IMG/VR virus record: IMGVR_UViG_3300031134_000612 | Strand: one strand, 5' to 3' | DNA length: 64,000 nt | Origin: a virus | Taxonomy: Duplodnaviria > Heunggongvirae > Uroviricota > Caudoviricetes | Part shown: piece by piece, positions 3,971-53,915 of the stretch | Layout of the letters: each line of letters begins with the position of its first letter | How positions within the stretch are numbered: the first letter of the stretch is position 1 | The notes under the pieces: generated by a model | Database searches by the model: none | Told to the model about the DNA's origin: nothing | What the model saw: only the letters and a program-made list of their open reading frames with translations | Position numbers and translations under genes: made by a program

Positions 3971-3999
3971 TTTTAAAAGTTTAAAAATTCAATAAAAAA

Positions 4000-13020: not shown

Positions 13021-13052
13021 AGAAAACTCCTAAATAATAGGCGATTATACCA

Positions 13053-13844: not shown

Positions 13845-13846
13845 GA

Positions 13847-14752: not shown

Positions 14753-14767
14753 TTTTAATATCCTATC

Positions 14768-17126: not shown

Positions 17127-17162
17127 AATATGGCAAGATTATACCATATTATTAGAGTTAAA

Positions 17163-17984: not shown

Positions 17985-19277
<1,293 letters not shown>

Positions 19278-19304
19278 CTATCTTAACATAGTAATACTAT
19301 TTAT

Positions 19305-20075: not shown

Positions 20076-20092
20076 GATTCAAACTCCTTTAT

Positions 20093-22414: not shown

Positions 22415-22466
22415 AAGAACTCCATAAAAGATGGCTTATTATAACACAAAAAAATAAAAAAATAAA

Positions 22467-23210: not shown

Positions 23211-23219
23211 GTGATCGCC

Positions 23220-24041
23220 TTAAATAGTGAGCATTTCTAATATTTTTATTTGGTTTTTAAAATTGTTGTCAAAGACAATATCAATGTCTACATTTTTAAA
23301 CAATTTACCTATCTTGTTTTTTATAAAAAACCGTCTACTGGATGTAATGTATTCGAATAATTCATCTTTACTAAGAAATTTTTTTTCTGCTGGTAGATAA
23401 TAATCATTAGTATTACTAGTAAAGTCAATTTCAACAAAATAACGGGGTGAAAAATCAAGAATCACGCTATACAACGTTGAAATATTAAGTTCATCATCAA
23501 AAAATAAAGAAGTCAGTGTTTCATTATTCAGTTTTGCTCGATTGTATATTTTTTTGTAAAATGCTGAATACTTGATATCATGTATTATTTTTACACCATT
23601 AAAAACAGCTTGAAAGTCATTGGTCATTGAATTAAAACGTTTAAATGACTGTATTGTCCCCAACAAATGATCATCAGATTGAACAAAATCAAAAATTTCG
23701 AAAGATTTTTTATAATCAACTGAAATAAAAGGCATAATTTTCTTTATTGATTGATAAATAGTATTTTCATTTTGATTTGGACCTTCAACAGTGATTTTCA
23801 TTGGATAATGTGCAACAGTCGAGTTAAATTTCTCATCATAGGAAAAAACCTTTGTGAACAGTTCAAAAGTATAAGTGTCATGCTCACTTGATGTAAATAC
23901 AATAAGGGCTGAACTATTTTTTGTATATGAGTAATGCATTGTCCCTTTATCTAAAAGACTTAAGATAATCTCACTGTATCGCTGAATAAACAATGCTGTA
24001 TGTTTGACTAGTTGTTCATGAGCTGTCATATCACACCTCAA
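23220..24041 (-). CDS. family member (273 aa; ends IKILEMLTI)
   Basis: Tandem array. Confidence 0.55.
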   Translation of the reverse strand: MRCDMTAHEQLVKHTALFIQRYSEIILSLLDKGTMHYSYTKNSSALIVFTSSEHDTYTFELFTKVFSYDEKFNSTVAHYPMKITVEGPNQNENTIYQSIKKIMPFISVDYKKSFEIFDFVQSDDHLLGTIQSFKRFNSMTNDFQAVFNGVKIIHDIKYSAFYKKIYNRAKLNNETLTSLFFDDELNISTLYSVILDFSPRYFVEIDFTSNTNDYYLPAEKKFLSKDELFEYITSSRRFFIKNKIGKLFKNVDIDIVFDNNFKNQIKILEMLTI

Positions 24042-24645
24042 TCATTTCACAAAGTGATAGGTGATCACGAATGGTAGATGGTGAAAGTTCAAAAAACGTC
24101 TTTTTGGACATACCAACTTTTGTCTTTTTGTTGACGATATAATGAAGCGAACCCATCGTTTCGGTATAGAACAGATTCAAGAGTTCTGGAATAGTCACTT
24201 TTTTGTGATTTTCATAAACGTCATTCACATTGCGATAAGTTAGCCAAATATCCCCCGTATCCAAATCAAACCAGAGATCTTTTTTGTTCATCAAGTGAAC
24301 AGGCCAGCACAAACGCATGAAATGCCCAGTATAGAGTTGTTTTTCGCCTTCGTGACGACATTCAAACTCAGTATCAAAGCGATAAAAGATGATCGATGTT
24401 TTGGCAATTTGACCACTGCTGGATTTACGGCGATAGGCTGGAGTATAAGTAATTCGTTCAAAAACAGTTGATTGAGATTTCAAATAAGTAAAAGTGGCTT
24501 CAAAACCATTACTCATGACACGGTTCATAAAGCTATCCACTGTAAAACCTTTATCCATGAAAGCACCAAGTTCAACACTTTTTTCAAAAGCGGCTTGAAC
24601 AAACGTCTTAACATTGGTGAAATCAAACAGGTTTAAATCTTTCAT
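24031..24645 (-). CDS. family member (204 aa; ends HLSLCEMIEV); first gene of the minus-strand array
   Basis: GGAG SD upstream; family tail. Confidence 0.55.
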   Translation of the reverse strand: MKDLNLFDFTNVKTFVQAAFEKSVELGAFMDKGFTVDSFMNRVMSNGFEATFTYLKSQSTVFERITYTPAYRRKSSSGQIAKTSIIFYRFDTEFECRHEGEKQLYTGHFMRLCWPVHLMNKKDLWFDLDTGDIWLTYRNVNDVYENHKKVTIPELLNLFYTETMGSLHYIVNKKTKVGMSKKTFFELSPSTIRDHLSLCEMIEV

Positions 24646-28810: not shown

Positions 28811-29584
28811 TTAGATTAAAGCCATTTCAGCCAAGGTTATATAGTGTTGAAGATTTCCCTTATCTTGCAACGCTGTATCATTGTCCATTTTCAGTAATTT
28901 CATTAAGACAACGCGAATACGTCTGAAAGCATAACGCTTCATGTGCCTTAATAATTGTTCTTCATTGACCACTTTATAATTTTTTCGATTACGACCAATT
29001 GAACTCAAAGATGTTATGGTACTAATTCTCAACACTTGTTCATTATCAATTTGTTTAGAGACTTCAACTCTTACGACATAACAATAGTTAATCAGAAAAT
29101 CAATATTCAGTAATAATTTTGGAGTTTCAGTAAAATCAAAGGAGACACTGAAAAATATTTTACTAAGTCTTGGAACATCCGCCGCTCGAAATAAAGGTTT
29201 TTTGACATCATTAAAATTTAAAGGTGTTATATCAACAGGAATATTCATCTCATCCACATTAGGAAAACTCATCAAGCTTTTTTCATAAGACTGATAAGAT
29301 ATCAATTTGTGTTCATCAAAACATTTAGCAATAGATGACATCATGCCAATGATGTGGGCAAATGATAAATCGAAATACCCACAAATGTGTTCCATAATGT
29401 CTCTGTTACAACGTATATTTAAACTGCGAGTATTAGCATTACAAATAAAATTAGGAGATTTAAAACCATTATATCGTGGAAACAAATCCACCAGTTGATT
29501 ATCATGCCCAAAGTGAATGATAGAAGATAAATGTTGCTGAAACTTACGAAGGCTCTCAGCTTCTAATTCAGTAATTTTTTGCAT
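28811..29584 (-). CDS. family member (257 aa; ends YITLAEMALI)
   Basis: Tandem trio with the next two genes. Confidence 0.55.
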   Translation of the reverse strand: MQKITELEAESLRKFQQHLSSIIHFGHDNQLVDLFPRYNGFKSPNFICNANTRSLNIRCNRDIMEHICGYFDLSFAHIIGMMSSIAKCFDEHKLISYQSYEKSLMSFPNVDEMNIPVDITPLNFNDVKKPLFRAADVPRLSKIFFSVSFDFTETPKLLLNIDFLINYCYVVRVEVSKQIDNEQVLRISTITSLSSIGRNRKNYKVVNEEQLLRHMKRYAFRRIRVVLMKLLKMDNDTALQDKGNLQHYITLAEMALI

Positions 29585-30285
29585 TAAATAGAATCCATCG
29601 CAATCAAAGTCATGTAGCGACCGATATCTTCAAATTCTGCTTCTCGAATGTCTTGTCTAGAAAACATTTTAATTCTTTTCGTTGTCAGTAAGCAAAGAAC
29701 ACGTTGACGAATAGCCTTCTTGATAATTTCGTCAACTGCTTTGATATTGTAATGCTTATCAACTTTAACCAAGAACCGTTCTTTTCGAGCCAATGGAAGT
29801 TTGATATTTAGAAAAGGAAAGAAGTTTTCACCATTAACATGAAATTTCATAGAAATTTGTACACTTGGGTAAACATTGTAGCCCTTCAGTACAGTATAAA
29901 TGGTTTCTTTATTCGCAATGACGTTTCTGTCTTTCAAAGGAATCATCATTTCATAATCAAAAGAGTCTGGTCGAAAGTTTTCAATCTCAAAAGTCGGTTG
30001 ATGGCTGACAGTTGTGGTTAACTGAGTGTTCTCCATGTGCGACATATAAAGATCAACGATTTCTTTAACAACATTAAAATCCATTGAAAATAGAGCGTAG
30101 ATCTCTTTAAGGATGTCTAATTTCAACCCAGTTAAATCAATTTCAAAAATATCTTTTTTAAAGTGGTTAATCCTAATAACTTCTTGATAGTTATTTTCTT
30201 CAATATAATATTTTACAATGCCTTCTTTTTTTTCTTCTTTATAGGCTTGAATTTGAGACAAAACAATTTCTTTAAAGTTTTTCAT
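29584..30285 (-). CDS. family member (233 aa; ends RYMTLIAMDSI)
   Basis: Tandem; 1-nt overlap. Confidence 0.55.
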   Translation of the reverse strand: MKNFKEIVLSQIQAYKEEKKEGIVKYYIEENNYQEVIRINHFKKDIFEIDLTGLKLDILKEIYALFSMDFNVVKEIVDLYMSHMENTQLTTTVSHQPTFEIENFRPDSFDYEMMIPLKDRNVIANKETIYTVLKGYNVYPSVQISMKFHVNGENFFPFLNIKLPLARKERFLVKVDKHYNIKAVDEIIKKAIRQRVLCLLTTKRIKMFSRQDIREAEFEDIGRYMTLIAMDSI

Positions 30286-30286
30286 T

Positions 30287-31021
30287 TTAAATGTTATCCA
30301 TGCTAAGAACAGTTAAGTATTGTTTAAGTGTTTCTTCATTGAATTCTACAGCATCAAAGCACTCATCGGGATAGGTATCAATTAAGAGAGCTTTAAATTC
30401 ACTCTGAACACCTTCTTTCACAAGAGCACAAGCATTGACATACAATTCATCAGTGCCAATAATCACTGAAAAATAACCTTCTTCTGAAAGTGGGAATGTG
30501 ATTTTAGCCCGTGGACAAATAACGCCATCTTTGTAATGCAAAAACAACTGGATATAAATACGTGAATCTTTCAATGTTAAGCCACCACTAAATTCTTTGG
30601 AATAATAGTTGCCATCAGCAGCGATACCTGCAAAAGAATCATATTTTGAAGCAAATTGTTCTTTAAAAATAGCTTTGACATAGAAATGTTCAAATTTATG
30701 CATTTTAAACTCATGCATATGGCTGACATAGGCAGCACAAATGGAATCAACTTTTTCGAAGTCAAACCCAAACGACTTGTAGATTTCACGCTCCATCAAT
30801 GAATGCTTACTGGAAAATACATAGATGTCGGAATAGTCTTTAAAAAAGTTATTTTCAATATTACTAGCTGTAAAAAAATCTAATGCCGACCAATTAGCCG
30901 CTCGTTTAGTCAACACTAATGAGTTTTTATGAATACCCTCGAAAGTAAGCTCATAATCATCAAAAGAAAATGACTTAATCGTTTCAACGATATGAATAAG
31001 ACCTTGTTTATTTTCAATCAT
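30287..31021 (-). CDS. family member (244 aa; ends YLTVLSMDNI)
   Basis: Tandem. Confidence 0.55.
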   Translation of the reverse strand: MIENKQGLIHIVETIKSFSFDDYELTFEGIHKNSLVLTKRAANWSALDFFTASNIENNFFKDYSDIYVFSSKHSLMEREIYKSFGFDFEKVDSICAAYVSHMHEFKMHKFEHFYVKAIFKEQFASKYDSFAGIAADGNYYSKEFSGGLTLKDSRIYIQLFLHYKDGVICPRAKITFPLSEEGYFSVIIGTDELYVNACALVKEGVQSEFKALLIDTYPDECFDAVEFNEETLKQYLTVLSMDNI

Positions 31022-31437
31022 GAATTAAACCCCACACTAGATTCAGCCAATTTAATAGAAACCCAATCAGGCAAAGAAAGGACACTAAAATCGCAAATAT
31101 CAGTGGCATTAACAAATGAACTCAAGGAAACCTTAAATTCACCATGGACAAAAATAGTGTGATTGGTTTCAAAATTGTTTTGTTCATCAAAAGAATGCGT
31201 AAAAGCTTTCAGAGCTTCATCATAACCTTTCATACCTTCTTCAAGCTTTTTGTAATCATCCAGATCATTTTGAACTTGGATATCAAGATCACGCCAACGT
31301 GTAAAGAATGTAAACAAAGCATTTCTAAACAAGTTATCAAATTCAATAACAGAAAGAGATGTCTCAATGACAATCACGGAGGATTCAGTGGTTTTGCCAT
31401 GATGATGAAATGTTTTTGAAATAACAATCTGATTCAT
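31018..31437 (-). CDS. hypothetical protein (about 139 aa), not a family member
   Basis: ORF trimmed to MNQIVIS, which has an AGAGAG SD; 4-nt overlap with the downstream gene. Confidence 0.4.
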   Translation of the reverse strand: MNQIVISKTFHHHGKTTESSVIVIETSLSVIEFDNLFRNALFTFFTRWRDLDIQVQNDLDDYKKLEEGMKGYDEALKAFTHSFDEQNNFETNHTIFVHGEFKVSLSSFVNATDICDFSVLSLPDWVSIKLAESSVGFNS

Positions 31438-31541
31438 AAATGATAATCTCTCTATAAAAATAATGCTATAATTATAGCATAGTGACAATTTTTAAGCAAT
31501 AAAAAAGAACCAGAAGGTTCTTTCTTAATGAGATTGAGTAA

Positions 31542-32444
31542 TTAAACTTTATGAGCACCCAAATCAGTTGATCTCAAACCGGCTACCAAACTAGTCAATT
31601 CTTTCAGTTCAGCATTAGTACCTGCATCACTGATAATAAGTGAACCTTTACCGTTTGCAACGTCACGTAATGTGTCAAATTTGTTCAATTGAAGTATCAT
31701 AGCCACTGCCATTTCATTAGAAATATTCAATGAAGAAGAAAGATTTTCAATGGCTTCATTAAAACCACGGCTAATAGCAAGACGCTGATCGGCAATACCT
31801 TCACCTTGTAGTTTCTTGGATTCTTTTTGAGCCTGAGCTTCTGCAACAATAGTAATTCTTGATGCTTCTGCACGATTCTTAGCAGCTTCCTTTTCACGCT
31901 CAGAAGCGGTTACTGAGTTATAAGAATCTTGTACATCGCTGGTTGGGATTGGTTCATCCACTAATACAGCCACAATTTTAAAACCAAATTCGCTCATTTT
32001 TGATGACAACACTTCTTCAATAACATCTTGAATTTCATCACGAACGCTATAAAGTTCCAAGAATGTTTTCTTACCTACTTCGGAACGAACAAGGTTGCTC
32101 ACATAGCTAATGATTTGAGTTTCTGGATCATCAAGTTCATAAGCAGCTTTTTCAGCGTCAACAACATGATATTGAACGTTGATAGGATATTTGATAAATA
32201 GGTTATCGTTCGTTTTCAATTCAAGAACAGTGCTCAATTGTAAAATGTTAAGTGGAACCACTTTATCAACTGCTTGAATCGGCCAAGGAAGTTTGAAAGA
32301 CAAACCTGCTGGTTTAATAGCCGAGAACTTACCAAATGTCACAATTACTGACACATGTTTGTTTTTTGTTAATACAACACAAGAGGAAATTACTAATCCA
32401 ATGAAGGCAATTAATATAAATCCTACGAAAATGTTTCCAATCAT
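31542..32444 (-). CDS. SPFH/band-7 (stomatin/prohibitin/HflC-like) membrane protein
   Basis: N-terminal TM segment, then an SPFH core, then an Ala/Glu/Lys-rich coiled-coil (REKEAAKNRAEASRITIVAEAQAQKESKKLQGEGIADQR) typical of band-7 proteins. Confidence 0.8.
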   Translation of the reverse strand: MIGNIFVGFILIAFIGLVISSCVVLTKNKHVSVIVTFGKFSAIKPAGLSFKLPWPIQAVDKVVPLNILQLSTVLELKTNDNLFIKYPINVQYHVVDAEKAAYELDDPETQIISYVSNLVRSEVGKKTFLELYSVRDEIQDVIEEVLSSKMSEFGFKIVAVLVDEPIPTSDVQDSYNSVTASEREKEAAKNRAEASRITIVAEAQAQKESKKLQGEGIADQRLAISRGFNEAIENLSSSLNISNEMAVAMILQLNKFDTLRDVANGKGSLIISDAGTNAELKELTSLVAGLRSTDLGAHKV

Positions 32445-38066: not shown

Positions 38067-38121
38067 AACAAGACCTCAAAAAAAATAAACCTTATAGAAG
38101 TATAAGATTTATGTGATAATG

Positions 38122-38196
38122 TTGAAGAGGAAGGATTTGAACCTCCGACATACCCGCCCAAAATGCAGGCTGCTCTACCCACTGAGCTACCCTTCA
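38122..38196 (-). tRNA. tRNA-Lys (anticodon UUU), enterobacterial-like
   Basis: Cloverleaf: acceptor TGAAGGG/CTCTTCA, D-arm GCTC-AGTGGGTA-GAGC, anticodon loop ATTTTGG on a CCTGC/GCGGG stem, T-arm GGAGG-TTCAAAT-CCTTC. The D-arm is identical to that of E. coli tRNA-Lys. The anticodon assignment is slightly uncertain: position 37 is G and the stem may be 6 bp. Confidence 0.65.
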
Positions 38197-38244
38197 AACT
38201 CTTTAGAAAACAATAGAGCAACTAGGTTACTCTATTTTTAAAAT

Positions 38245-38321
38245 TGGTCGGAGTGGCAAGATTCGAACTTGCGGCATCTTGCTCCCAAAGCAAGCGGTCT
38301 ACCGGGCTGACCTACACTCCG
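38245..38321 (-). tRNA. tRNA-Pro (anticodon UGG) with encoded CCA
   Basis: Acceptor CGGAGTG/CACTCCG-A-CCA, D-arm GGTC-AGCCCGGTA-GACC, anticodon arm CTTGC-TTTGGGA-GCAAG, T-arm GCAAG-TTCGAAT-CTTGC. The anticodon loop matches that of E. coli proM. Confidence 0.85.
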
Positions 38322-43378: not shown

Positions 43379-44476
43379 ATGGGTGGTAATGCATTAGCTC
43401 TTGCCGTAGTAAACGGTAATCCTGAGCCGGTAGGCGTTCAATCAAAACGCCTTCACAAAAAAGATTTCGATAGCTTGACTGCCAAGGTAGTCAAAGTGTT
43501 GAATGCTGCCATTGAGAAAGCGAATGCGATGGGTGCTCATATTGTTCACGCTCCCCATGAAGTGAAAGCTTATCGCCAAAAGGAAACCTTTGGTGACCTT
43601 GATCTATTGGTGGATGGTGAGTTGTTTGCCTTTGTCACCTATGAAGAAGTGATGGAACTGCTTCGTGTTGAATTTAATCACGTTGGCCCATTGCCTTACA
43701 AACCAAAAGATAAAAAAGATATGGTAATGAGCATTGGTCTGCCTTCGGATGAAGATGCGGTTTATTTCCAGCTTGATTTGATTGCTTCTGAACGACCTTA
43801 CTACACCTTTCAGTCTTCTTATTTGAACTGGAATGACTTGGGTAACTTGGTTGGTGTGGTTGCTAGTTCTAATGGTTTCTTGAAATATGGTCATGATGGT
43901 TTGCGTTATTTGTTCCGTGATGGTGACAACCTCTTTGAGAGTGTTGTATTGACTAATGACTGGGATGAAGCGTTAGAATTCTTTGGTTACTCACAAGAAC
44001 GCTATTATGCTGGTTTTGATAGCCTGTTAGATATTTATGAGTATGCAGCATCAAGCCGTTATTTCAGCCCAAGTTTGTATGCGTTTGAAAACCGTAACCA
44101 TACACAACGTACTCGTGACCGTAAACGTCCAACGTATAATGGTTTCTTGAACTGGATTGAAGAAAAAGATGCTGTTGGTTATTTTAATGGTAAAACACCG
44201 ATGGACAGTGACAAGTGGAAAGAACGTGTCTATGAGTTCTTCCCAACCTTTGATCAGACTGAAATTGATACATGGGCAAAACTTGAACGCCGCAAAGTCT
44301 TTAAAGAGTATTTCAACGGTGGAAGGCTTTTGAAGTTCAAACCAGAACTCAAAAACAAAGAAATCAGTGATTATTTGAAAGCTCTTGAACAAAGTGTTAC
44401 CAATATCGAAGACTTTGTAATTGAGCATAAAGAAGACGCCGTTAGATTGTTGGTAGAAAAGAAAGAGTCTATGTAG
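43379..44476 (+). CDS. hypothetical protein (365 aa); possible nucleotidyltransferase-fold motif (ETFGDLDLLVDGE)
   Basis: AAGGAG SD. The G-D-h-D-h-h-h motif resembles the Pol-beta-type NTase acidic dyad (as in CCA-adding or MNT enzymes), but the upstream G[GS] element is not evident. Confidence 0.5.
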   Translation: MGGNALALAVVNGNPEPVGVQSKRLHKKDFDSLTAKVVKVLNAAIEKANAMGAHIVHAPHEVKAYRQKETFGDLDLLVDGELFAFVTYEEVMELLRVEFNHVGPLPYKPKDKKDMVMSIGLPSDEDAVYFQLDLIASERPYYTFQSSYLNWNDLGNLVGVVASSNGFLKYGHDGLRYLFRDGDNLFESVVLTNDWDEALEFFGYSQERYYAGFDSLLDIYEYAASSRYFSPSLYAFENRNHTQRTRDRKRPTYNGFLNWIEEKDAVGYFNGKTPMDSDKWKERVYEFFPTFDQTEIDTWAKLERRKVFKEYFNGGRLLKFKPELKNKEISDYLKALEQSVTNIEDFVIEHKEDAVRLLVEKKESM

Positions 44477-45376: not shown

Positions 45377-45742
45377 TACCTTAGCGTTGCGTTCACGGTC
45401 TTCTTTCAAGTGCTTGGCAATATCGACTACTTTGTCATTCAAATCAACAACACAAATACCATCAAACATCTTTACCAGAGCAGAGAAAGATTTCAAAGCG
45501 TCCATTGTATTATCATTCAATTGACTTTCTGTGTAGGTTCTAGGAGGCATTCCGATAGTCCTTGCACTATGACTCGATGTATAGAACAAACTTGAAATTG
45601 TAGTATTGTCAGATACCTTACGACCAGAGACATGCAGAGCTGTCAAAATATCTTCAACTTCTGGTTTATAGGTATCCACCAATACAGTTGGCAATGGTTC
45701 AGCTTTTGGAAACACAAAATCTAAGAAGGCTTTCGGAAGCAT
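45362..45742 (-). CDS. hypothetical protein (126 aa)
   Basis: ORF with no recognised domain. Confidence 0.45.
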   Translation of the reverse strand: MLPKAFLDFVFPKAEPLPTVLVDTYKPEVEDILTALHVSGRKVSDNTTISSLFYTSSHSARTIGMPPRTYTESQLNDNTMDALKSFSALVKMFDGICVVDLNDKVVDIAKHLKEDRERNAKVKELV

Positions 45743-45889
45743 AGTCGTTCTCCTATATAGTCAGAATATTATAATAACAAAAAAATAGAAAAATAGCAAT
45801 ATTTTAATTAAATAAATGTTTTTTTTGAAAATATAGGTTGATGAATTATAAATTTTATATATCATATACTGAATATATAGGAGAACAAC

Positions 45890-46183
45890 ATGGAACCGAC
45901 AATAGATTCTTTAAATAACAAAAGAACGGAAGAAAAAAAACAAATGAAGTACAACTTTAGAAACGCAATCGTATTTGCAGTTGTAGTTGTGCTCGTAAAC
46001 ATTATCTTCAGAATGAGTACTGATTTGAAAGCTTCTGCAGAATATGAAAATATTATAAACATATTAAATATTTTTTCTTTTCTTGGTGCAGGTACTGCTG
46101 TTCTTTTTTTTGTAAATTACATTTTTAATAAAAAAGATATCACAACATTAGAAAACAAGATATCAAAAATCAAAATAAACTAA
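45890..46183 (+). CDS. small membrane protein (2 TM)
   Basis: AGGAG SD; two hydrophobic segments. Confidence 0.45.
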   Translation: MEPTIDSLNNKRTEEKKQMKYNFRNAIVFAVVVVLVNIIFRMSTDLKASAEYENIINILNIFSFLGAGTAVLFFVNYIFNKKDITTLENKISKIKIN

Positions 46184-46210
46184 ATTGTAGGTTTTAACTA
46201 AAAATAACAG

Positions 46211-46216
46211 TTGACA
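46211..46216 (+). promoter_or_regulatory. -35-like TTGACA upstream of the thrS leader (the -10 is ambiguous: CACAAT or CAATAT)
   Basis: Consensus -35 hexamer about 47 nt upstream of the leader ATG. Confidence 0.35.
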
Positions 46217-46262
46217 TTTTTAGAAATAAAGATCACAATATAAGTAATTGGAGAAAATTCAG

Positions 46263-46340
46263 ATGAAATTATTTGCAGTAAACACAACGACCACAACAAC
46301 TCAGTTCAATAGCTGGGCTGGTCGATTGTTGCTGTATTAA
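46263..46340 (+). CDS. leader peptide with six consecutive Thr codons (MKLFAVNTTTTTTQFNSWAGRLLLY)
   Basis: GGAG SD 9 nt upstream. The 25 codons include ACA ACG ACC ACA ACA ACT in a row. It lies about 100 nt upstream of the ThrRS gene, with an intrinsic terminator in between. Confidence 0.6.
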   Translation: MKLFAVNTTTTTTQFNSWAGRLLLY

Positions 46341-46386
46341 AATAATCGGAACCACACAAACCCAGCTAAACGGCTGGGTTTTTTTA
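46311..46386 (+). promoter_or_regulatory. transcription-attenuator-like structure: antiterminator segment AGCTGGG (46311..46317) pairing with CCCAGCT (46361..46367), and terminator ACCCAGC-TAAACG-GCTGGGT + T7 (46360..46386)
   Basis: Mutually exclusive pairings around an intrinsic terminator immediately after a Thr-rich leader ORF. The Thr-codon stretch (CGACCACAACAAC) can also pair with TGGTCG and TTGTTG in 46319..46332. Confidence 0.55.
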
Positions 46387-46446
46387 TGCCTAAAATAAAT
46401 TATTAACACCATTAACAAACAAACTAAACTATCAAGGGGAAATAAA

Positions 46447-47625
46447 ATGAACGACAAATTAAATGAAGAAAAACGTTACATGCAAGTAGCCAAAGAAATG
46501 AACCTGTTCATGTTGGCTGAAAGTGCCGGTGTCGTTTACTGGAAACCAGAAGGTCTTAAATTGTATGAGAATTTAAAATCTTTTATTCGTAAACATCACG
46601 AAGACGAAGGCTATCTTGAAGTGAAAAGCCCATCTATTGTGGTACCTAATCTATTTGAACAATCTGGTCACATGGATAAATACAAAGACAATATGTTTTT
46701 CCTTAACTCATCCGAAGCCAGTAACTATGCTCTCCGTCCTATGAGCTGTCCTAACCACATCCTCATCTACCAATCTGAAAAAAGAAGCTACCGTGATTTG
46801 CCTTTACCTATCTTTGAATTTGGTGAAGTCTTCCGTAATGAGGCGTCTGGTGCTTTGCAAGTGTTATTTAGACAACGCCAGTTTTGCCAAGATGATAGTC
46901 ATGTTTTCGTCAATGAAGAGAATTTGATTGGTTCTGTCAATCAATTTATTCAGATGAGTCAAAAAGCCTATCAAGAGTTAGGTTTTAAAAATATCAAATA
47001 CGCCATTGCCCTACGTCCAGAAAAAAGATTTGGTGATGATAGCTTATGGGACAAAGCAGAAGAATCTTTGAGAGAAGCCTGCAGAATGAATAATCTTGAC
47101 TTTGAAGAGAATGAAAATGACGGGGCTTTCTATGGGCCAAAGCTAGAACTTCAAGTCGAAGATAAACTGGGCAGATCATGGCAATTAGGTGTTATACAGC
47201 TTGATTATGTCCTACCAGAACGTTTTGGATTAGAATACATTGATGCAGATAACAAACCTAAGCGTCCTATTATTCTTCATCATGCTGTCTTAGGGTCACT
47301 TGAAAGAATGATTGGGATCTTGTTGGAATCATTTGGCAAAGAAATTCCAGATTTCTTACACCCGATGAAATCAGTGATAATACCTGTTTCCGAAAAATCT
47401 ATGGAGTATGCTAAAATGGTGTATTCACATTTTGATAAGAAGTCATCAAAATTGGATCAAAGTGCTGATTCGTTAGGTAAAAAGATCAGATACTGGAAGG
47501 AACGTGGTGTGCCTGAGATTATTGTAGTGGGTGAAGCTGAACAAAATAAATATGAAAATGAAGGTGTCATAAGTTTTGTAGTAAACCGTGGAAAAGATAA
47601 AGAAGTTAGAGAAATTAAACAATAA
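46447..47625 (+). CDS. thrS: threonyl-tRNA synthetase catalytic core plus anticodon-binding domain; N-terminal N1/N2 (TGS and editing) domains absent
   Basis: The class II ThrRS signatures RPMSCPNH, FRNEASGALQVLFRQRQFCQDDSHVF and HHAVLGSLER keep the Zn-ligands (Cys, His, His), and there is a C-terminal anticodon-binding-like domain. The protein is 392 aa against about 640 aa for bacterial ThrRS, so the alignment begins at the catalytic domain. AAGGGGA SD. Confidence 0.85.
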   Translation: MNDKLNEEKRYMQVAKEMNLFMLAESAGVVYWKPEGLKLYENLKSFIRKHHEDEGYLEVKSPSIVVPNLFEQSGHMDKYKDNMFFLNSSEASNYALRPMSCPNHILIYQSEKRSYRDLPLPIFEFGEVFRNEASGALQVLFRQRQFCQDDSHVFVNEENLIGSVNQFIQMSQKAYQELGFKNIKYAIALRPEKRFGDDSLWDKAEESLREACRMNNLDFEENENDGAFYGPKLELQVEDKLGRSWQLGVIQLDYVLPERFGLEYIDADNKPKRPIILHHAVLGSLERMIGILLESFGKEIPDFLHPMKSVIIPVSEKSMEYAKMVYSHFDKKSSKLDQSADSLGKKIRYWKERGVPEIIVVGEAEQNKYENEGVISFVVNRGKDKEVREIKQ

Positions 47626-47642
47626 CAAAAGTAACTGGAATT

Positions 47643-47668
47643 AAAAGAGGCTTCGGCCTCTTTTTTTA
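47643..47668. terminator. bidirectional terminator (AGAGGC-TTCG-GCCTCT + T7)
   Basis: Tetraloop hairpin plus T-run. Confidence 0.7.
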
Positions 47669-48286
47669 TTGGTAATACATGATTATCGTTTTCTTTTCAT
47701 CTTCTGACATTTCCACAATGGTCTTATCCAGTATCGGTTTGAAATAAATTTCTCGAAATTGCTCATGAATGAATTGCACTTGTTTATTGACATCTTGAAG
47801 TTTTGGATAAGCAAACTCATGAAGAACAATATCATTGGCTGTTTTCATAGACAGATAAGGTAATGCAATAGGTTGATTGTTGTCAGGTCTTAAATAAAAT
47901 ACATTAGTAAAATAAAACCGCTTAGTTTCAAGGGTTAAATTTTCTTTATCACGAGTATGTTTTTCAATCAATAGCACGTTTTCTAAGAAAGCCATGAATA
48001 GTTTTCGTGATTGAACATGTTCAGCATAAGTCATAACTAAATTACTTTCATTGACAGAGTTTTTATGGAATTTAAAAGTGTTTTTATAGAATAAGTCATG
48101 TTCATCAGACATGCTATCGTCCATATCAAAGAAACCTTCTCCAGCAATGATAAAGTTATTTTCACTAAACGCTTGATCAAAAGAGATCTTGGCTGAATGT
48201 CTGTATATTTCCCCTTCACAATAGGTATAGGTATACTTATTGTTATTTAACTGATCCCGTAAAAATCGATTGAAATTGTTAATCAT
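47666..48286 (-). CDS. family member, subfamily B (206 aa; ends KKTIIMYYQ)
   Basis: Tail pattern and tandem position. Confidence 0.5.
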   Translation of the reverse strand: MINNFNRFLRDQLNNNKYTYTYCEGEIYRHSAKISFDQAFSENNFIIAGEGFFDMDDSMSDEHDLFYKNTFKFHKNSVNESNLVMTYAEHVQSRKLFMAFLENVLLIEKHTRDKENLTLETKRFYFTNVFYLRPDNNQPIALPYLSMKTANDIVLHEFAYPKLQDVNKQVQFIHEQFREIYFKPILDKTIVEMSEDEKKTIIMYYQ

Positions 48287-48295
48287 AAAAAGCCC

Positions 48296-48964
48296 TCAAT
48301 AATAATACATCTTAACGATTTGCTTTTCTGATCGAGTAAGCTTATCTGTTACATCCTTTTTTTCAATAATTTTTGAATAATATCGTTTATAAAACTCATT
48401 GTCAATGACTTTCATTGCAGCATTAAAATTATCCTCAGTGTTTTTAACGATAATGTAGAGTTCTTCCAGCAAACCATAGGCTTTAAACTTAAAAATTATT
48501 TTCTGATAGATTTGTTGTTTTATCGAATCAAACACATACACAGGACAGATTTCAAACATATTGAGGTTGCTGTATATCGGCTTTCGTTTAGTATTGATTT
48601 CACTGCCAGCATTGATATTTTTTAAATGTTCCATAATACGGATGAACGCTTGCTTAGCATAAAGATCATCAATGTTATTAAAATCAAACTTATAACGAAG
48701 ATTTTTTTTAGAAGGTTCTTCATCAATGATAAATGAGCATTCATGTTCCAAATCATGATAGAAATAGAGTAAATTGCCGACTGTAAATTGAAAGGGTTCA
48801 TCTTTTCGATAGCGAATGTCACCAGAAGGTGTTAAAAGTTGGACTTTGATTGAATAGCCAAATGATATTGAATAGTGATATCGGCCATCACTGATAACAT
48901 CTTTTAAATAGGAGTTAAATGACTCCATGTATTCTTTATTAATGGTAGGTTTAAGTTCAAGCAT
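48296..48964 (-). CDS. family member, subfamily B (222 aa; FYKRYYSKIIEKK ... QIVKMYYY)
   Basis: Shares the KRYY..I.E(K/R)K...(S/K)(E/K)(K/E)Q.L.KM(Y/V)Y(Y/F) C-terminus with 48966 and 49695. Confidence 0.55.
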   Translation of the reverse strand: MLELKPTINKEYMESFNSYLKDVISDGRYHYSISFGYSIKVQLLTPSGDIRYRKDEPFQFTVGNLLYFYHDLEHECSFIIDEEPSKKNLRYKFDFNNIDDLYAKQAFIRIMEHLKNINAGSEINTKRKPIYSNLNMFEICPVYVFDSIKQQIYQKIIFKFKAYGLLEELYIIVKNTEDNFNAAMKVIDNEFYKRYYSKIIEKKDVTDKLTRSEKQIVKMYYY

Positions 48965-48965
48965 G

Positions 48966-49661
48966 TTAAAAATAAACCATTTTAATGAGTTCTTGTTCTT
49001 TTTTACTCAAGAATTTACCACGTTCAATAGTCTTACGCTCAATAATATCATCGTAATAACGTTTTTGAAACTGAGCTTCCATGTCATCCATTGCCATCAA
49101 GAATTTATGATCATCATTCAAAACAACGATAGTATGCTCAGGAATCCCTTTGAATGCTTTGAAATGAATACGAGCACATTTACTGACGATTTTACTAGTT
49201 CGGTCGTATCGGTAAAAGCAATTGACTTTAAAGGTATCGGTTTCAAAATCAACCAGTTCTCTTTTACGTTTAATATCGTGTGCTTCATTCAACAAACGTA
49301 AATGTTTTTTTAATCGAATGAAAAACTCATCGAAATGAAATCTATACACATAATCAAACTTAACAGGCTTGCTTTTATCTTTTGGAGATTGAGCAAGAAA
49401 AAAAGAAATTTCAGAAGCAGAATCATAATTACATAATTCGGGTGATCTTAAAACGGCAACAAGATAGGACTCATCAAAAGATTCAATATGACCTTTACCC
49501 CAGCTATTTATTTCAATAACCCGAGTTCTACGCCCATCAGCCTGAAGTGGGTATCGGACAATGCTAGTATTTGTAAACCCATATTCATGATGTTTATCAG
49601 TAAACTTTGCAGAGAAATATTTACTCAGTTCTTCTGCTTTATTGATCTCTTTTTTAAACAT
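48966..49661 (-). CDS. family member, subfamily B (231 aa; FQKRYYDDIIERK ... ELIKMVYF)
   Basis: As above; also YGFTNTSIVRYPLQADGRRTRV, shared with 49695 (YGVNQFGICRYPLNTDGNRIRV). Confidence 0.55.
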   Translation of the reverse strand: MFKKEINKAEELSKYFSAKFTDKHHEYGFTNTSIVRYPLQADGRRTRVIEINSWGKGHIESFDESYLVAVLRSPELCNYDSASEISFFLAQSPKDKSKPVKFDYVYRFHFDEFFIRLKKHLRLLNEAHDIKRKRELVDFETDTFKVNCFYRYDRTSKIVSKCARIHFKAFKGIPEHTIVVLNDDHKFLMAMDDMEAQFQKRYYDDIIERKTIERGKFLSKKEQELIKMVYF

Positions 49662-49694
49662 GATAAATAACCTTTCGTAATTTAAGAGAGTGTA

Positions 49695-50429
49695 TCAGTA
49701 GTACATCATTTTGACAAGAGTTTTTAAGTCATTATCCCAAAGAGAAATATCCGCTAATTTGTAAAGGTCATCAAAACTAATTCGTGGAAAAGCTTCTCTT
49801 ATTTTTTCTTTGTAATAACGTTTAAAGAATTCCATATCCATATTTTTCATGGTCGATTGCGACGTTAAATCATGATTAGTAATATAGGAAGTTATATCTC
49901 TGGCACCTAATGATGAGTCGAAACCAATAAAAGTAACCGTAATGACTTTCGAAAATGATTGGCTAAGCTGGTCATATTTAAAACTGGAGTACAATTTAAA
50001 CTGATCACCTTGAACAAATCTGAAAGGTAATTGAATGGATTCTTTATTAATAATCTCTAAATGCTGATTGAATCGATTGATAAAGTTTTCGATATTCTTG
50101 CAAGATAAATTACCGAAATGATTAGAATAAATATCATCAATTTCAGTAGGTATAGCAAAATAAAGCGAACTAGGAGTGTCAGCCTGTGATGAAATAATAG
50201 AAGCTACACTATCGGATTTGTCAAAAGTATCATAGCCATCAGAAAAAAAGGATGATGATTCCATTGATACACGAATACGATTACCATCAGTGTTTAAAGG
50301 ATATCGACAAATACCAAATTGATTGACGCCATATTCGAATTCATTGTTAGTAAAATTGTCAACAAAAAAATCCAGAAGACCATGTATAGGGTATTTTTTC
50401 TTCCTTTCTTCCGTTATTTTTTCGATCAT
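49695..50429 (-). CDS. family member, subfamily B (244 aa; FFKRYYKEKIRE ... LVKMMYY)
   Basis: As above. Confidence 0.55.
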   Translation of the reverse strand: MIEKITEERKKKYPIHGLLDFFVDNFTNNEFEYGVNQFGICRYPLNTDGNRIRVSMESSSFFSDGYDTFDKSDSVASIISSQADTPSSLYFAIPTEIDDIYSNHFGNLSCKNIENFINRFNQHLEIINKESIQLPFRFVQGDQFKLYSSFKYDQLSQSFSKVITVTFIGFDSSLGARDITSYITNHDLTSQSTMKNMDMEFFKRYYKEKIREAFPRISFDDLYKLADISLWDNDLKTLVKMMYY

Positions 50430-50461
50430 ATCATTACCTTAAATATTTATAAATATAGATA

Positions 50462-50487
50462 CAAAAAAGGATGGCCGAAGCCATCCA
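50462..50487 (-). terminator. rho-independent terminator (GGATGGC-CGAA-GCCATCC; T-run on minus) after the BI-1 gene
   Basis: Hairpin with an A6 run on plus, which is a T-run on minus. Confidence 0.6.
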
Positions 50488-50504
50488 TAATTTATTCAAC
50501 TGTT

Positions 50505-51155
50505 TTAGTCTTTTTTACCCATGATTTCAAGGATTCGCAAGAACAAGTTGATAATGTCCATGTAAAGAGCGGCTGCGGAGTCTACGGCGTTATCAACCGT
50601 TTTAGGCAAGGCTGCGGCTTTACCCCAGTCATAACCAATATAACCACAGAAGATAGCTGCGATAATCCAGTCCATAATGCCCAATTTCATTTTAAACACA
50701 AAGGTCAAAATCAATTCAGCAATGATAGAAGCCAACAAACCCCAGAACAGTCCAGAAGCAATGCTTTCAAAGAACTTAGGATAAGCAGTACCCAACAACA
50801 TCATAATACACGTTACCACCGTTGTAACCTGCATAGCATTGATAACCAGATCAGGTGAATACTGAGAGGTGACAATGTTCACAATCAAACCAAAGGGAAC
50901 AGCCACAAAGTTAAACCCGATAAAGCTAACCAGTGCATTGCTGGATGATGTAAACAAGTAGATACCAAAGAAGCAACTGATAAAGTAGCCTACTAAGAAG
51001 ATCCAAATCGGAACAGCCATAATACTGGCAACAGGAACGCTTTTAACAATCAGAACGTTCAACAAGAAACCATAAAGCAAAACAGCACCGATGATAAAAT
51101 TATACAATCGGGTTGAAATGGTATTGGTATTTGCATAAGCTGCAGATGTTTTCAT
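50505..51155 (-). CDS. Bax-inhibitor-1/YccA (TMBIM) family 7-TM membrane protein
   Basis: Seven hydrophobic segments and the family C-terminal signature (DWIIAAIFCGYIGYDWG ... AALYMDIINLFLRILEIMGKKD). Confidence 0.75.
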   Translation of the reverse strand: MKTSAAYANTNTISTRLYNFIIGAVLLYGFLLNVLIVKSVPVASIMAVPIWIFLVGYFISCFFGIYLFTSSSNALVSFIGFNFVAVPFGLIVNIVTSQYSPDLVINAMQVTTVVTCIMMLLGTAYPKFFESIASGLFWGLLASIIAELILTFVFKMKLGIMDWIIAAIFCGYIGYDWGKAAALPKTVDNAVDSAAALYMDIINLFLRILEIMGKKD

Positions 51156-51224
51156 TTATTTTAAAACTCCGTAAGGTTAGTGTTAAGTCGCTAGTATAGC
51201 AAAAATATTAAAATATGACAAGCA

Positions 51225-51794
51225 TTAAATGAAGCTCATTCGAATCACATCAATTGCGTCTGTGCTCAATGTAGTCAAAGGTTTTTGCAATTCTTCTGGT
51301 AAGCTGTCCTTTATAACGTTTCTTTTATAGAAATCAAACAAATAATCTTCAATAACATTTAGGTCACTATCAGGAATTTCAATAATTAAAATATCATAAT
51401 CACCATTATCTAAATTAATAAATTCAAAACTCTTTGCCATGATAATACTAGCATGTTCATCTAATAGATAATATGTTCGTTCAAGAGAACAGGCTTCATC
51501 AAGGTTAAAAACATTCTCATACTGGTTAATAAGTCTAATTGATTTTGATTGAAATGAATACTTTTTTTCAAGATATTCTGTTAATTGAAAAAAAAGTGGG
51601 TGACTCTGTGAAGGACAAAAAGAACTTCCTTCTTCTACTGTTACATTATTGAATAACGTTGAATCCTCATAGACGAGCTTTGGGATTTTAGATCGAAAAT
51701 CCTCTTTTGTAATATTATGTTCTATACAAAAATCTTGGATTTGCTCATAAATTAAATCGTATGAAAAATCTGTTGTTTTAATCATGGTTGTCAA
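51225..51794 (-). CDS. family member, subfamily C (189 aa; LPEELQKPLTTLSTDAIDVIRMSFI)
   Basis: Shares the N-terminal (IYxxIQD-F/Y-C...IT-E/K-x-x-FR) and C-terminal (L/F)P(E/S)EL(K/Q)KP(L/I)(T/S)(T/Q)L motifs with the next two genes. Confidence 0.55.
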   Translation of the reverse strand: MTTMIKTTDFSYDLIYEQIQDFCIEHNITKEDFRSKIPKLVYEDSTLFNNVTVEEGSSFCPSQSHPLFFQLTEYLEKKYSFQSKSIRLINQYENVFNLDEACSLERTYYLLDEHASIIMAKSFEFINLDNGDYDILIIEIPDSDLNVIEDYLFDFYKRNVIKDSLPEELQKPLTTLSTDAIDVIRMSFI

Positions 51795-51800
51795 TCCTTT

Positions 51801-52361
51801 TTAAATGGTAATCATACGAATAAGATCAATTTCAACTTTAGAAAGCTGGCTCAATGGTTTTTTTAACTCTGATGGGAAGCTTTTATTCGTGAAATGAGCT
51901 AAATAATAATCAAACAATTGCTGTTCAAAAGCCATAGGATCACTATCACTGAATTCAGTCAACAGCATATGGTCAGCATCAGAATTTAATTCAAAAAATC
52001 TAAATGTATATTGTTCTCTTAATTCATGATTATTATCAATAGAATAATATGTTAAAAGCCTATAACACTCTTTTTTATTAGGATTAAACAAGAGATCATA
52101 CTGTTCAACTATCGGAGAAAGTTTAGATGTAAATGAATATTTATCATGTAGATATTTAACTACATCACGAAAAAGTGGATTAACTCGCTCTGGGTAAAAT
52201 ACTGTAGACCTTTCAAGCGTCACATGGTCTATTAAAAATGAAAAATAAAAAAGAGGTGGAAAACCCAGTCGAAAAGATTTTTCTGTAATGCCTTTACTTT
52301 CACAATAATCTTGAATATGTGAATAGATGGTATTGAGTGAGAATGTATCCGATGTACTCAT
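51801..52361 (-). CDS. family member, subfamily C (186 aa; FPSELKKPLSQLSKVEIDLIRMITI)
   Basis: As above. Confidence 0.55.
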   Translation of the reverse strand: MSTSDTFSLNTIYSHIQDYCESKGITEKSFRLGFPPLFYFSFLIDHVTLERSTVFYPERVNPLFRDVVKYLHDKYSFTSKLSPIVEQYDLLFNPNKKECYRLLTYYSIDNNHELREQYTFRFFELNSDADHMLLTEFSDSDPMAFEQQLFDYYLAHFTNKSFPSELKKPLSQLSKVEIDLIRMITI

Positions 52362-52428
52362 TTTACATTTCCTATTTTGAATAGGTCATTATTATATCAA
52401 AAAAATAAGAAAAGGTCTACTGAAACTA

Positions 52429-53058
52429 TCAGATAACATACATCATAAATAACTGATATTCATCGTCGGTTAATTGAGTGATAGGTTTTTTGAGTTCTTC
52501 GGGCAACCCAGTTATATATTTGGTATAGGCATAAAAGAAAAAATGATCAATGTCTTTATCAAATTTATGTTCATCCATGCCATCATATAAGAGAATTTCA
52601 ACACCATCGTCATTTTCATCACAAGGGTCAGTCAATCGAAGGGTTCTGAATATTTTTAATCGGCCTGCATGATCAAAATAAAAACTGTCTTCGAAATCAT
52701 AAAATGGTTCATCGATAACACAAAGACTGGTAGCAATTTTAAATATGGTTTTCATAACAGGAAACACAACATCACCATCTTCAATCTCTTCATGGTTTAA
52801 AAGAGCCAATGACTTGATATATTCATTGCATTCATCATAGGGCCAAAAGAAATGAAAACAATTAACATTAATTTCACTGGTATCACAATAATTATAATGT
52901 AGCCTTAAATTATCGACAAAACCTTTTACAGTAAATCCCTTAATGTCTTTACCACCTTTAAAGCCTTTCATTAATGCTAATGCTTCATCAGCACCATACT
53001 CTTGTGATATCTTGGGATAACTTTGATGTCGATTATAGTCATAAGGAATAGTTGTCAT
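52429..53058 (-). CDS. family member, subfamily C (209 aa; LPEELKKPITQLTDDEYQLFMMYVI)
   Basis: As above. Confidence 0.55.
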   Translation of the reverse strand: MTTIPYDYNRHQSYPKISQEYGADEALALMKGFKGGKDIKGFTVKGFVDNLRLHYNYCDTSEINVNCFHFFWPYDECNEYIKSLALLNHEEIEDGDVVFPVMKTIFKIATSLCVIDEPFYDFEDSFYFDHAGRLKIFRTLRLTDPCDENDDGVEILLYDGMDEHKFDKDIDHFFFYAYTKYITGLPEELKKPITQLTDDEYQLFMMYVI

Positions 53059-53915
53059 ATCGCCTCCATTAACAATAAGGAAATATACTGTTCTCTTGTT
53101 GTTCTGTCATAAATATTCATGTCTGCTTTTCTCACGCCGTAGCGTTTTTTAACAACCGGAATTAATCTATCTACAAAATGACGATACATGGATTCTTCAA
53201 GAGTGGATTCATCTACGGGTCTTGACATCGACATAAGATCACTGTAAATGCGACCAGCATATATTTTTCTAGTAGCACAAATCTTTCCACTGATGATATC
53301 AACAACAAAGTTGAGTTCATATTCTGGCCCAAAATGAGTATTGATGATTACAACTGGTTTTAGGACACCTTCGTCAATATAAAAATGAATCGTACTGGTG
53401 ATTGAAGCGTTCTGTAAATGCCTGTTATTTGTTTTGTAAAGATCATGAAATTTTAAAATAGCCAAATCACACGTTTTATTAATATAACTTTGGTTCCATT
53501 TTTTACTAAATGTTAAATAGTTCTTTTCATTACCTATATAATCAATAGAATTATTTTTAATGAAAGTTATAAGCCCATGTTTCTCCATTGAATAAGCGGC
53601 TTTAAAGTAAGCATTAATCACTTTATCAACAGTTTCTAATTTGAAATTAATGGCTTTTAAAAAGATTTCATCAAATAAAGGATGATCGTTTAAATCAAAA
53701 TAGTCAGTTTTAAAATAAGCTAAATGATTATGAGTAAAAACATCAAAACGACTTTTATAATTATGAGTGGCATCATCAAAAACATTTTGAAAATTCTCAA
53801 AATGAAAATAAAAATGATCAAATTTTGGACTCATTTTTACACAAGTGTCTACAAAAATATCACATTGAAGGCGTAGTGCTTCATGAAGTGTTGTTATTGC
53901 TTTATTCTGAATCAT
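53055..53915 (-). CDS. family member (286 aa; ends YISLLLMEAI)
   Basis: Tail pattern; 4-nt overlap. Confidence 0.5.
   Translation of the reverse strand: MIQNKAITTLHEALRLQCDIFVDTCVKMSPKFDHFYFHFENFQNVFDDATHNYKSRFDVFTHNHLAYFKTDYFDLNDHPLFDEIFLKAINFKLETVDKVINAYFKAAYSMEKHGLITFIKNNSIDYIGNEKNYLTFSKKWNQSYINKTCDLAILKFHDLYKTNNRHLQNASITSTIHFYIDEGVLKPVVIINTHFGPEYELNFVVDIISGKICATRKIYAGRIYSDLMSMSRPVDESTLEESMYRHFVDRLIPVVKKRYGVRKADMNIYDRTTREQYISLLLMEAI

Follow-up and report, generated by a model that had tools for sequence, protein, structure and literature searches.

Threonyl-tRNA synthetase (ThrRS) is the textbook class II double-sieve enzyme. Its zinc site is unable to exclude serine, and the N2 domain, which deacylates Ser-tRNA-Thr in cis, is therefore regarded as essential, with a few organelles and the Crenarchaeota as exceptions. 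Minimal ThrRSs are already known from yeast mitochondria, whose MST1 (PDB 3UGQ, 3UH0 and 4YYE) naturally consists of a catalytic core and a tRNA-binding domain only, and from Crenarchaeota, whose ThrRS-cat (Aeropyrum pernix ThrRS-1, PDB 3A31) is a catalytic enzyme without a cis-editing domain which relies on a separate protein, ThrRS-ed. A two-domain form has also been engineered from the Escherichia coli enzyme as deltaN-ThrRS (residues 242–642; PDB 1EVK, 1EVL, 1FYF and 1KOG). Here we examine a member of a bacterial-type family with this architecture, encoded by a thrS-like gene at positions 46447..47625 (+ strand) of the IMG/VR virus record IMGVR_UViG_3300031134_000612; the whole stretch of DNA that was analysed, 64,000 nucleotides (nt) in length, is hereafter called the window. 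We consider it probable (about 0.68) that this gene encodes an active ThrRS which would be induced when Thr-tRNA-Thr is scarce and which would work without cis-editing of Ser-tRNA-Thr.

Extra ThrRSs and leader-controlled operons provide further points of comparison. Bacillus subtilis ThrZ is a second ThrRS controlled by a T-box. In E. coli, thrL (RF00506) and pheM-pheST each have a short open reading frame (ORF) of cognate codons, alternative hairpins and control by ribosome stalling, and pheM shows that an aminoacyl-tRNA synthetase (aaRS) operon can be under leader-peptide control, as we propose for the thrS of the window. The stress-induced T2 of Anabaena is an extra ThrRS which is made when the normal supply of Thr-tRNA-Thr fails; its own editing is poor, the other ThrRS correcting its errors in trans, and in a deltaN mutant of this cyanobacterial enzyme the editing activity is gone (PMC4787780). 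In MST1, which charges tRNA-Thr, Ser-AMP is hydrolysed in the active site ahead of transfer, yet residual Ser-tRNA-Thr is formed all the same (PMC4267643). Huge phages can encode as many as 15 aaRSs, and the charging of phage tRNAs has been suggested as their function (Al-Shayeb et al. 2020, PMC7162821).

A minimal ThrRS and its family

The 392-amino-acid (aa) ThrRS ORF was found by Pfam to contain tRNA-synt_2b (aa 88–295, E = 5e-42) and HGTP_anticodon (PF03129, aa 309–367, E = 6e-12) and no third domain. It scored 397.2 bits against the NCBIfam model TIGR00418 thrS, exceeding the curated equivalog cut-off of 383.65, with the match confined to profile positions 173–536 of 565. Residues 242–616 of E. 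coli ThrRS (1qf6) align with the protein, and its N-terminal boundary corresponds to E. coli residue 242, as in the deltaN-ThrRS constructs 1EVK and 1EVL. The three comparisons agree that this is a genuine ThrRS which begins at the catalytic domain, as the original prediction (made from the letters of the window and a list of its ORFs) had proposed, with the catalytic core at about aa 1–300 and the anticodon-binding domain at about aa 305–392. The zinc ligands C101 (MSCPNH), H152 (DDSHVF) and H278 (LHHAVLGS), together with D150, align with E. coli C334, H385, H511 and D383. Also retained, and aligned with E. coli catalytic residues, are H75 (E. coli H309), the motif 2 residues R130, E132, R142 and F146, and Y229, K232, Q251 and R287 (motif 3). 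The motif 2 residues and the equivalents of G283, S284 and R287 in motif 3 are invariant in the family, and the claim that zinc ligands and motif 2/3 residues are kept was thus supported. Judged by its sequence, the ORF is confirmed as a bacterial-type ThrRS composed of a class II core and a shortened anticodon-binding domain only, and it has the core, the zinc triad and the HGTP domain of a member of TIGR00418 thrS and of the class IIa aaRSs.

The start of the gene is well delimited. An AAGGGG Shine-Dalgarno motif is located at 46434–46439 (+), and an in-frame TAA lies 49 nt upstream (46396–46398), the ATG being the first possible start downstream of it. The preceding 240 nt are taken up by a promoter-like site, a short ORF and a terminator, which leaves no space for an overlooked N-terminal exon; neither an upstream in-frame exon nor a missed start was found in this region.

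Neither TGS (N1) nor tRNA_SAD (N2) was found in the ThrRS ORF by Pfam. We also searched with a profile of the first 240–262 residues of 73 full-length ThrRSs, for which E. coli ThrRS (1e-117) and the ThrRS of phage Phosso (1e-91) served as positive controls. With this profile none of the six reading frames of the window had a significant match (best E = 0.77, 7 bits), and 507 kb of relatives' loci contained no remnant, in agreement with the earlier observation that N1 and N2 are missing. The tRNA_SAD, tRNA-Thr_ED, YbaK and DTD families had no match among the 77 window ORFs; a stand-alone ThrRS-ed-like gene, which the original prediction had suggested might be present elsewhere in the genome, was therefore not found within the window, to which this search was confined. 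Since the profile and editing-family scans of the window were empty, cis-editing appears to be absent and no trans-editor appears to be encoded nearby. The window ThrRS most likely works without cis-editing of Ser-tRNA-Thr, and its fidelity is probably reduced, to judge from the engineered deltaN enzymes and from yeast MST1.

The window ThrRS is a member of a large family, of proteins 376–415 aa in length. Its best 120 relatives in a collection of 5.8 billion proteins were 57–95% identical to it and all 359–415 aa long, with no full-length member and no Pfam domains beyond tRNA-synt_2b and HGTP_anticodon among them. In an alignment of 28 family sequences (56–84% identity to the window protein) none of the zinc, motif 2, motif 3 or H309-equivalent residues varies. 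The aligned sequences start uniformly (..E.KRYMQVA..) and end shortly past the last beta-strand of the anticodon-binding domain, and the family is therefore without N1/N2 and without the C-terminal helix of E. coli ThrRS. The thrS family is under strong purifying selection (ratio of non-synonymous to synonymous substitution rates, dN/dS, of 0.03 for the window gene vs a 95%-identical relative; dS 1.14, dN 0.034). Nineteen positions which are ≥ 85% conserved in 72 cellular ThrRSs are replaced in the family by another, family-invariant residue, including H244Y and R245M (in the universal DHRK motif), N333S, C361V, H371Q and R512H, the last of which adjoins the zinc histidine. These substitutions are candidates for adaptation to the loss of the N-terminal module.

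In a search of 1.84 billion cluster representatives there was a score gap after the window family, from 452 to 321 bits. Below this gap, among the 150 best representatives, full-length enzymes are mixed with at least 25 further ThrRS clusters of 381–430 aa. Because of these short clusters the minimal architecture can be called recurrent in metagenomes, and N1/N2 seem to have been lost many times in uncultured organisms or elements. These further short ThrRSs (50%-identity clusters, for example P0132, P0140, P0147, P0165, P0170, P0204, P0232, P0257, P0272 and P0275) begin with Met and a few residues, followed by the motif DHR.LG..L.LF. A literature search found no description of the minimal architecture for bacterial-type ThrRSs. 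The species genomes of GTDB gave no match when searched with the single ThrRS protein; when searched with the family alignment, the matches listed contained only full-length enzymes of 38–44% identity, the generic ThrRS motif having dominated this search. A plasmid search recovered only 39–43%-identical relatives, labelled thrS or unannotated. Peptide patterns of the single protein found nothing in IMG/VR. With a degenerate DNA motif specific to the family, a further 23 metagenomic loci and a single IMG/VR contig were recovered.

An AlphaFold2 model of the window ThrRS, computed on the family alignment, had a predicted local distance difference test (pLDDT) score of 89.9 and a predicted template modelling (pTM) score of 0.88. 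When compared by Foldseek, the model matched E. coli/Salmonella deltaN-ThrRS and 1QF6 with template modelling (TM) scores of 0.87–0.91 (1evk, 8h99 and 1qf6: 0.89–0.91), yeast MST1 with 0.87–0.89 and Aeropyrum ThrRS-1 with 0.81 (rank 50). The anticodon-binding domain (47371..47622, + strand, delimited from the model and the alignment to E. coli) is of class IIa, with the order beta-alpha-beta-alpha-beta-alpha-beta-beta, and is a complete alpha/beta unit in the model (pLDDT > 90). The anticodon-binding-like C-terminal domain described in the original prediction is thus present, but it is shortened and not full, the helix that closes the E. coli protein (about residues 621–642) being absent. E. 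coli E600 and D572 are conserved (E365 and D337 here), but N575 and R609 are not, and conservation is lost at several of the positions which contact the anticodon in E. coli.

The window ThrRS most closely resembles E. coli deltaN-ThrRS in its two domains and N-terminal boundary (38% identity, TM 0.89), with an identical zinc triad and identical motif residues. Unlike that engineered protein it is natural and family-conserved, has no C-terminal helix and contains the 19 family-invariant substitutions, with KRYMQVA standing where the universal DHRK(L/I)G motif is found in others. With MST1 it shares a minimal make-up in which, as far as the searches indicate, the whole editing domain is naturally absent and the active site is retained, and MST1-like pre-transfer editing with residual Ser-tRNA-Thr is the behaviour that would be expected of it. 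MST1 differs in being eukaryotic and organellar, in its identity of only 31–32%, in having its own N-terminal extension and no bacterial attenuation, and in its adaptation to an unusual tRNA-Thr1. Aeropyrum ThrRS-1 is likewise without a cis-editing domain but is archaeal in type (28% identity, TM 0.81), and the Crenarchaeal system is defined by its free-standing editing partner, whereas no ThrRS-ed gene was found among the window ORFs. T2 and ThrZ follow the logic proposed for the window ThrRS, that of an extra enzyme made only on failure of the normal Thr-tRNA-Thr supply; unlike the window ThrRS, they keep N1 and N2 and are induced by zinc limitation or a T-box and not by a leader peptide.

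Phage ThrRSs are of both kinds. Sinorhizobium phage Phosso has a full-length ThrRS, and the 636-kb huge phage LR756504.1 has an unannotated 386-aa ThrRS with the same domain boundary as the window protein. The latter is 54% identical to the E. coli core and 42% identical to the window protein, and its truncation is therefore considered independent. In contrast to the window thrS, its gene has no Thr leader and is embedded in a tRNA array (gene at 2983–4143 of locus L088, within a nine-tRNA array at 1968–5762). The tRNA-Thr(GGU) of this array ends 1 nt before the ATG of the ThrRS gene, and tRNA-Asn and tRNA-Thr(UGU) follow its stop codon.

The threonine-codon leader upstream of thrS

The presence of a Thr-codon leader-attenuator before thrS, which had been noted earlier, was upheld, and the arrangement is conserved in 19 distinct leaders. 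In the window the features of this region are all on the + strand. The sigma-70-type promoter candidate at 46211..46239 (TTGACA, 17-nt spacer, CACAAT) agrees at 10/12 positions and is the best site in 45700–47800; TTGAC-type hexamers are located at the equivalent relative position in related loci. The leader peptide gene (46250..46340) has a GGAG Shine-Dalgarno motif (46250–46253) 9 nt before the ATG and a 25-codon ORF (46263–46340) which encodes MKLFAVNTTTTTTQFNSWAGRLLLY followed by a stop codon. This ORF contains six consecutive Thr codons, ACA ACG ACC ACA ACA ACT (46284..46301), which are the proposed sensor of charged tRNA-Thr, and the predicted antiterminator strand AGCTGGG (46311..46317), which is complementary to the 5' arm of the attenuator terminator. 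The terminator (46358..46388) has a 10-bp stem (AAACCCAGCT/GGCTGGGTTT), a 4-nt loop and a T-run (-15.1 kcal/mol). A further intrinsic terminator, AAAAGAGGC TTCG GCCTCTTTT followed by a T-run, is found after thrS at 47643..47670.

We used constrained folding to place a ribosome footprint on the leader. With the footprint on the Thr run, AGCUGGG pairs with the terminator 5' arm (-21.5 kcal/mol) and a hairpin is enclosed; with the footprint at the leader stop codon these two strands cannot pair and the terminator can form. It should be noted that the antiterminator is absent from the plain minimum-free-energy fold and is visible only in co-transcriptional, ribosome-masked folding. Every family member with upstream DNA has a leader of 5–10 consecutive Thr codons (19 distinct leaders, from genomes of 21–68% GC), and the structure switch under a stalled-ribosome mask was predicted in 18 of the 19. 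The terminator arms vary by lineage (CCCAGC, GCCAGC, GCCCAGUG and GCCGCCCGG) and the partner strand covaries with them. On these predicted structures the leader is a case of classical ribosome-mediated attenuation which senses charged tRNA-Thr, and this control by Thr codons is the strongest indirect evidence that the product of the enzyme is Thr-tRNA-Thr.

Unlike thrL, the window leader precedes thrS and not a biosynthetic operon. It does not belong to Thr_leader RF00506 (14.1 bits vs a gathering score of 55) or, at threshold, to any other leader family in Rfam, and a literature search on thrS leader peptides gave nothing relevant. Cognate-codon leaders were also sought before the other two aaRS genes of the window: the small ORF upstream of the tyrosyl-tRNA synthetase (TyrRS) gene, MNASNTFHFQKSFTVRY, has no Tyr run, and none was found before the seryl-tRNA synthetase (SerRS) gene, which has only 48 nt upstream.

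In 39 of 69 full-length thrS loci (mostly from beta- and gammaproteobacteria) we found a terminator-like hairpin within 180 nt upstream, and 18 of these 39 also have a Thr-rich small ORF, with MTPRTTT conserved in Burkholderiales. The small ORFs and their hairpins are candidate Thr-dependent attenuators, those of Betaproteobacteria being candidates for a weaker version of the window leader, and Rfam has no family for the leaders upstream of cellular thrS. Because similar leaders precede full-length genes, the attenuator of the minimal family may be inherited rather than compensatory, and it is probably not a consequence of domain loss. The original prediction had suggested that the attenuator replaces E. 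coli-type autoregulation, which these leaders make doubtful. In E. coli ThrRS it is the catalytic and C-terminal domains which bind the thrS operator (PDB 1KOG is a deltaN-ThrRS–operator complex), the N-terminal domain only blocking the ribosome. In Burkholderiales and relatives (loci L008, L012, L014, L023, L025, L033, L039, L051 and L062) the small ORF begins with MTPRT(T)(T) and lies ~100–220 nt upstream of full-length thrS, followed by a terminator-like hairpin directly before the gene; in Xanthomonadales the motif is MSTT(T/I).HR.

Proposed mode of action and alternative explanations

We propose that the window ThrRS would be a catalytically competent dimeric class II enzyme, the natural counterpart of E. 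coli deltaN-ThrRS, and that leader and thrS would be transcribed from their own sigma-70-type promoter through the ribosome-mediated attenuator. With Thr-tRNA-Thr plentiful, the ribosome would pass the six Thr codons, reach the leader stop codon and cover AGCUGGG, and the terminator would form. With Thr-tRNA-Thr scarce, the ribosome would stall on the Thr run, AGCUGGG would pair with the terminator 5' arm and thrS would be transcribed, which would amount to induction by uncharged tRNA-Thr. The ThrRS would then charge tRNA-Thr and, without N2, would not deacylate Ser-tRNA-Thr in cis; accuracy could come from pre-transfer hydrolysis in the active site, could be provided in trans by a full-length ThrRS or another factor, or could simply be lower. 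The setting would most likely be that of an auxiliary, demand-induced ThrRS which accompanies TyrRS, SerRS and tRNA genes on a very large ORFan-rich element working in the bacterial cytoplasm.

Several points weigh against this proposal. Its weakest link is the auxiliary status of the enzyme on a giant element, which is uncertain, with ~84 kb of a 1.28-Mb contig read. The antiterminator rests on a thermodynamic prediction with an assumed ribosome footprint, and the effect of the 19 family-specific substitutions is uncertain. The anticodon-binding domain has diverged (N575 and R609 are lost, and Pfam misses the domain in many family members), and tRNA recognition could therefore differ.

The gene might instead encode the only ThrRS, a housekeeping enzyme, of some unrecognised kind of cell with a genome of 1–2 Mb, for example an intracellular bacterium, which would live editing-free or edit in trans with a factor encoded elsewhere. 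This we regard as unlikely, although the size of the contigs speaks for it. The window maps to the 1.28-Mb ENA contig ERZ27247443 k141_1011963 at about 388–451 kb, the exact protein occurs on four contigs > 1 Mb, and relatives are found on Ga0310127_000002 (1.04 Mb), Ga0308158_10000004 (1.46 Mb), Ga0247725_1000001 (1.54 Mb) and Ga0308423_1259934 (1.85 Mb), which is well past the 735 kb of the largest described phage genome (PMC13282480). A phage carrier was not supported given these sizes, nor was the first suggestion that the ThrRS acts during infection. The cell-type membrane proteins of the window (SohB-like S49 with NfeD, Band 7, Bax1-I), its bacterial promoters, Shine-Dalgarno sites and terminators, and the full-length TyrRS and SerRS would also suit a cell. 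However, ~85% of the window ORFs have no Pfam match, many of them in tandem paralogue arrays; the 10 kb beyond each window edge and the loci of six relatives have a similar appearance, and no ribosomal protein or rRNA gene was found in any locus read. A relative of 437 kb with synteny to the window (Ga0308163_10000035) is listed among the viral genomes of IMG/VR, a window gene has jumbo-phage homologues (including one in a 735-kb genome), and GC-rich family members adjoin ordinary bacterial or mobile-element genes (GGDEF/EAL, AcrVA2-like, SprT-like), as accessory genes would. In addition, no close relative was present among the GTDB species-genome matches listed. Further relatives are found on contigs of 286–604 kb, amid ORFans and other aaRS genes. 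No clear hallmark virion gene (capsid, portal, terminase) was found in the 64-kb window, none of 50,697 phage records was matched by megablast with the locus or with 22 kb of window sequence, and a literature search on phages > 1 Mb gave nothing relevant. All considered, the carrier could be a virus, another element or a cell, and it is not a known phage.

Two explanations which concern the protein itself are less probable still. It seems improbable that this is a non-canonical ThrRS paralogue, such as a self-resistance copy (BorO/ObaO-like), an amino acid:carrier-protein ligase or a regulatory pseudo-synthetase. Truncated aaRS paralogues do often gain new roles (PMC4787780) and some family-specific substitutions are near the active site, but the full catalytic and zinc set and the anticodon-binding domain have been kept at a dN/dS of 0.03, the TIGR00418 equivalog cut-off is exceeded, and control by Thr codons fits an enzyme which produces Thr-tRNA-Thr. 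There is also no biosynthetic gene cluster in the window. Immunity of the BorO/ObaO type was rejected, as no non-ribosomal peptide synthetase, polyketide synthase or tailoring domains are found nearby and Y229, G230 and L256 (E. coli Y462, G463 and L489, which are sites in inhibitor-complex entries) are unchanged. Least probable of all, to a degree that we consider negligible, is an artefact in which N1/N2 are hidden by a gene call cut short at its 5' end, by the frameshift of a pseudogene or by a break in the assembly. Only the unusual length suggests this, whereas the in-frame stop and the promoter, leader ORF and terminator leave the upstream DNA occupied, the same boundary is present in 120 relatives from independent assemblies, the identical protein is found on 7 contigs and no N1/N2 signal is found in any frame. 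The upstream signals and the 120 concordant relatives refute the artefact as far as sequence analysis reaches.

If the reading of an active ThrRS without cis-editing is true of a large, selected family lacking N2, editing-free threonylation would be viable in the bacterial cytoplasm. The family would be natural material for studying how accuracy is kept or given up, including possible trans-editing by a resident full-length ThrRS, and for identifying those of the 19 family-specific substitutions that make up for the missing domain. Its conserved Thr leader is a case, open to direct testing, in which stalled ribosomes would let the product of an aaRS control the aaRS gene. The window ThrRS would also illustrate how a very large bacterial-type element tops up a step of translation, probably at a cost in accuracy. 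Further interest comes from the conservation of the attenuator and from the carrier, which is unexplained and of megabase scale. The window belongs to a clade of contigs of 1.0–1.85 Mb with bacterial expression signals, ~85% ORFans, tandem paralogue arrays and several aaRS and tRNA genes, and this carrier, which could be a giant phage-like element, an extrachromosomal element of another kind or an unrecognised cell, may itself be more notable than the ThrRS. A bolder and rather speculative extension, which we think unlikely, is that an undescribed, widespread ThrRS family has permanently shed its proofreading domain and is carried, as a cassette with its Thr-codon attenuator, on virus-like elements of bacteria which are of megabase scale, rich in ORFans and beyond the size of any described phage. 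It would then supply Thr-tRNA-Thr on demand during host takeover, independently of the host, with Ser-for-Thr mistranslation tolerated or exploited, or with the full-length ThrRS of the host editing in trans.

Other genes of the window

The window has a GC content of 32.6% and is 90% coding. Shine-Dalgarno motifs precede 43 of its 77 ORFs, and expression is therefore taken to be of bacterial type. thrS is flanked by ORFans, paralogue arrays and the gene for a small membrane protein. Synteny with the window is limited to the closest relatives, and the thrS-leader cassette is therefore found in varied contexts.

Besides thrS, the translation genes of the window are all on the - strand: a full-length TyrRS of 424 aa with an S4-like C-terminal domain (4006–5280), a full-length SerRS of 423 aa (17985–19256), and tRNA-Lys(UUU) and tRNA-Pro(UGG) (38121–38321). 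Also on the - strand are genes for a NUDIX hydrolase (6173–6568), a SohB-like S49 peptidase with an NfeD N-terminal domain (9856–10740), which also matches phage head-protease profiles, and a Bax1-I/YccA-like membrane protein (50505–51155), three housekeeping proteins of cell type set among ORFans. The + strand encodes a TnpB/IS605 OrfB-like protein with a Cas12f1-like TNB domain (1329–2750), which appears to be single-copy on the 1.28-Mb contig, and a 365-aa Pol-beta-family nucleotidyltransferase-like protein (43379–44476; phrog_24943). Homologues of the latter, at 27–34% identity, are encoded by jumbo phages that infect Pseudomonas, Variovorax, Acinetobacter and Xanthomonas and by the huge phages LR756501, LR756504 and LR756508 (484–735 kb). 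An NAD-dependent ligase and a Band 7 protein are also encoded in the window.

The paralogue arrays consist of head-to-tail ORFans of 190–300 aa without Pfam matches and are located at 12205–24645, 28811–32444 and 47666–53915, all on the - strand. Four array copies just downstream of thrS have alike aromatic C-termini (..MYYQ, ..KMYYY, ..KMVYF and ..KMMYY).

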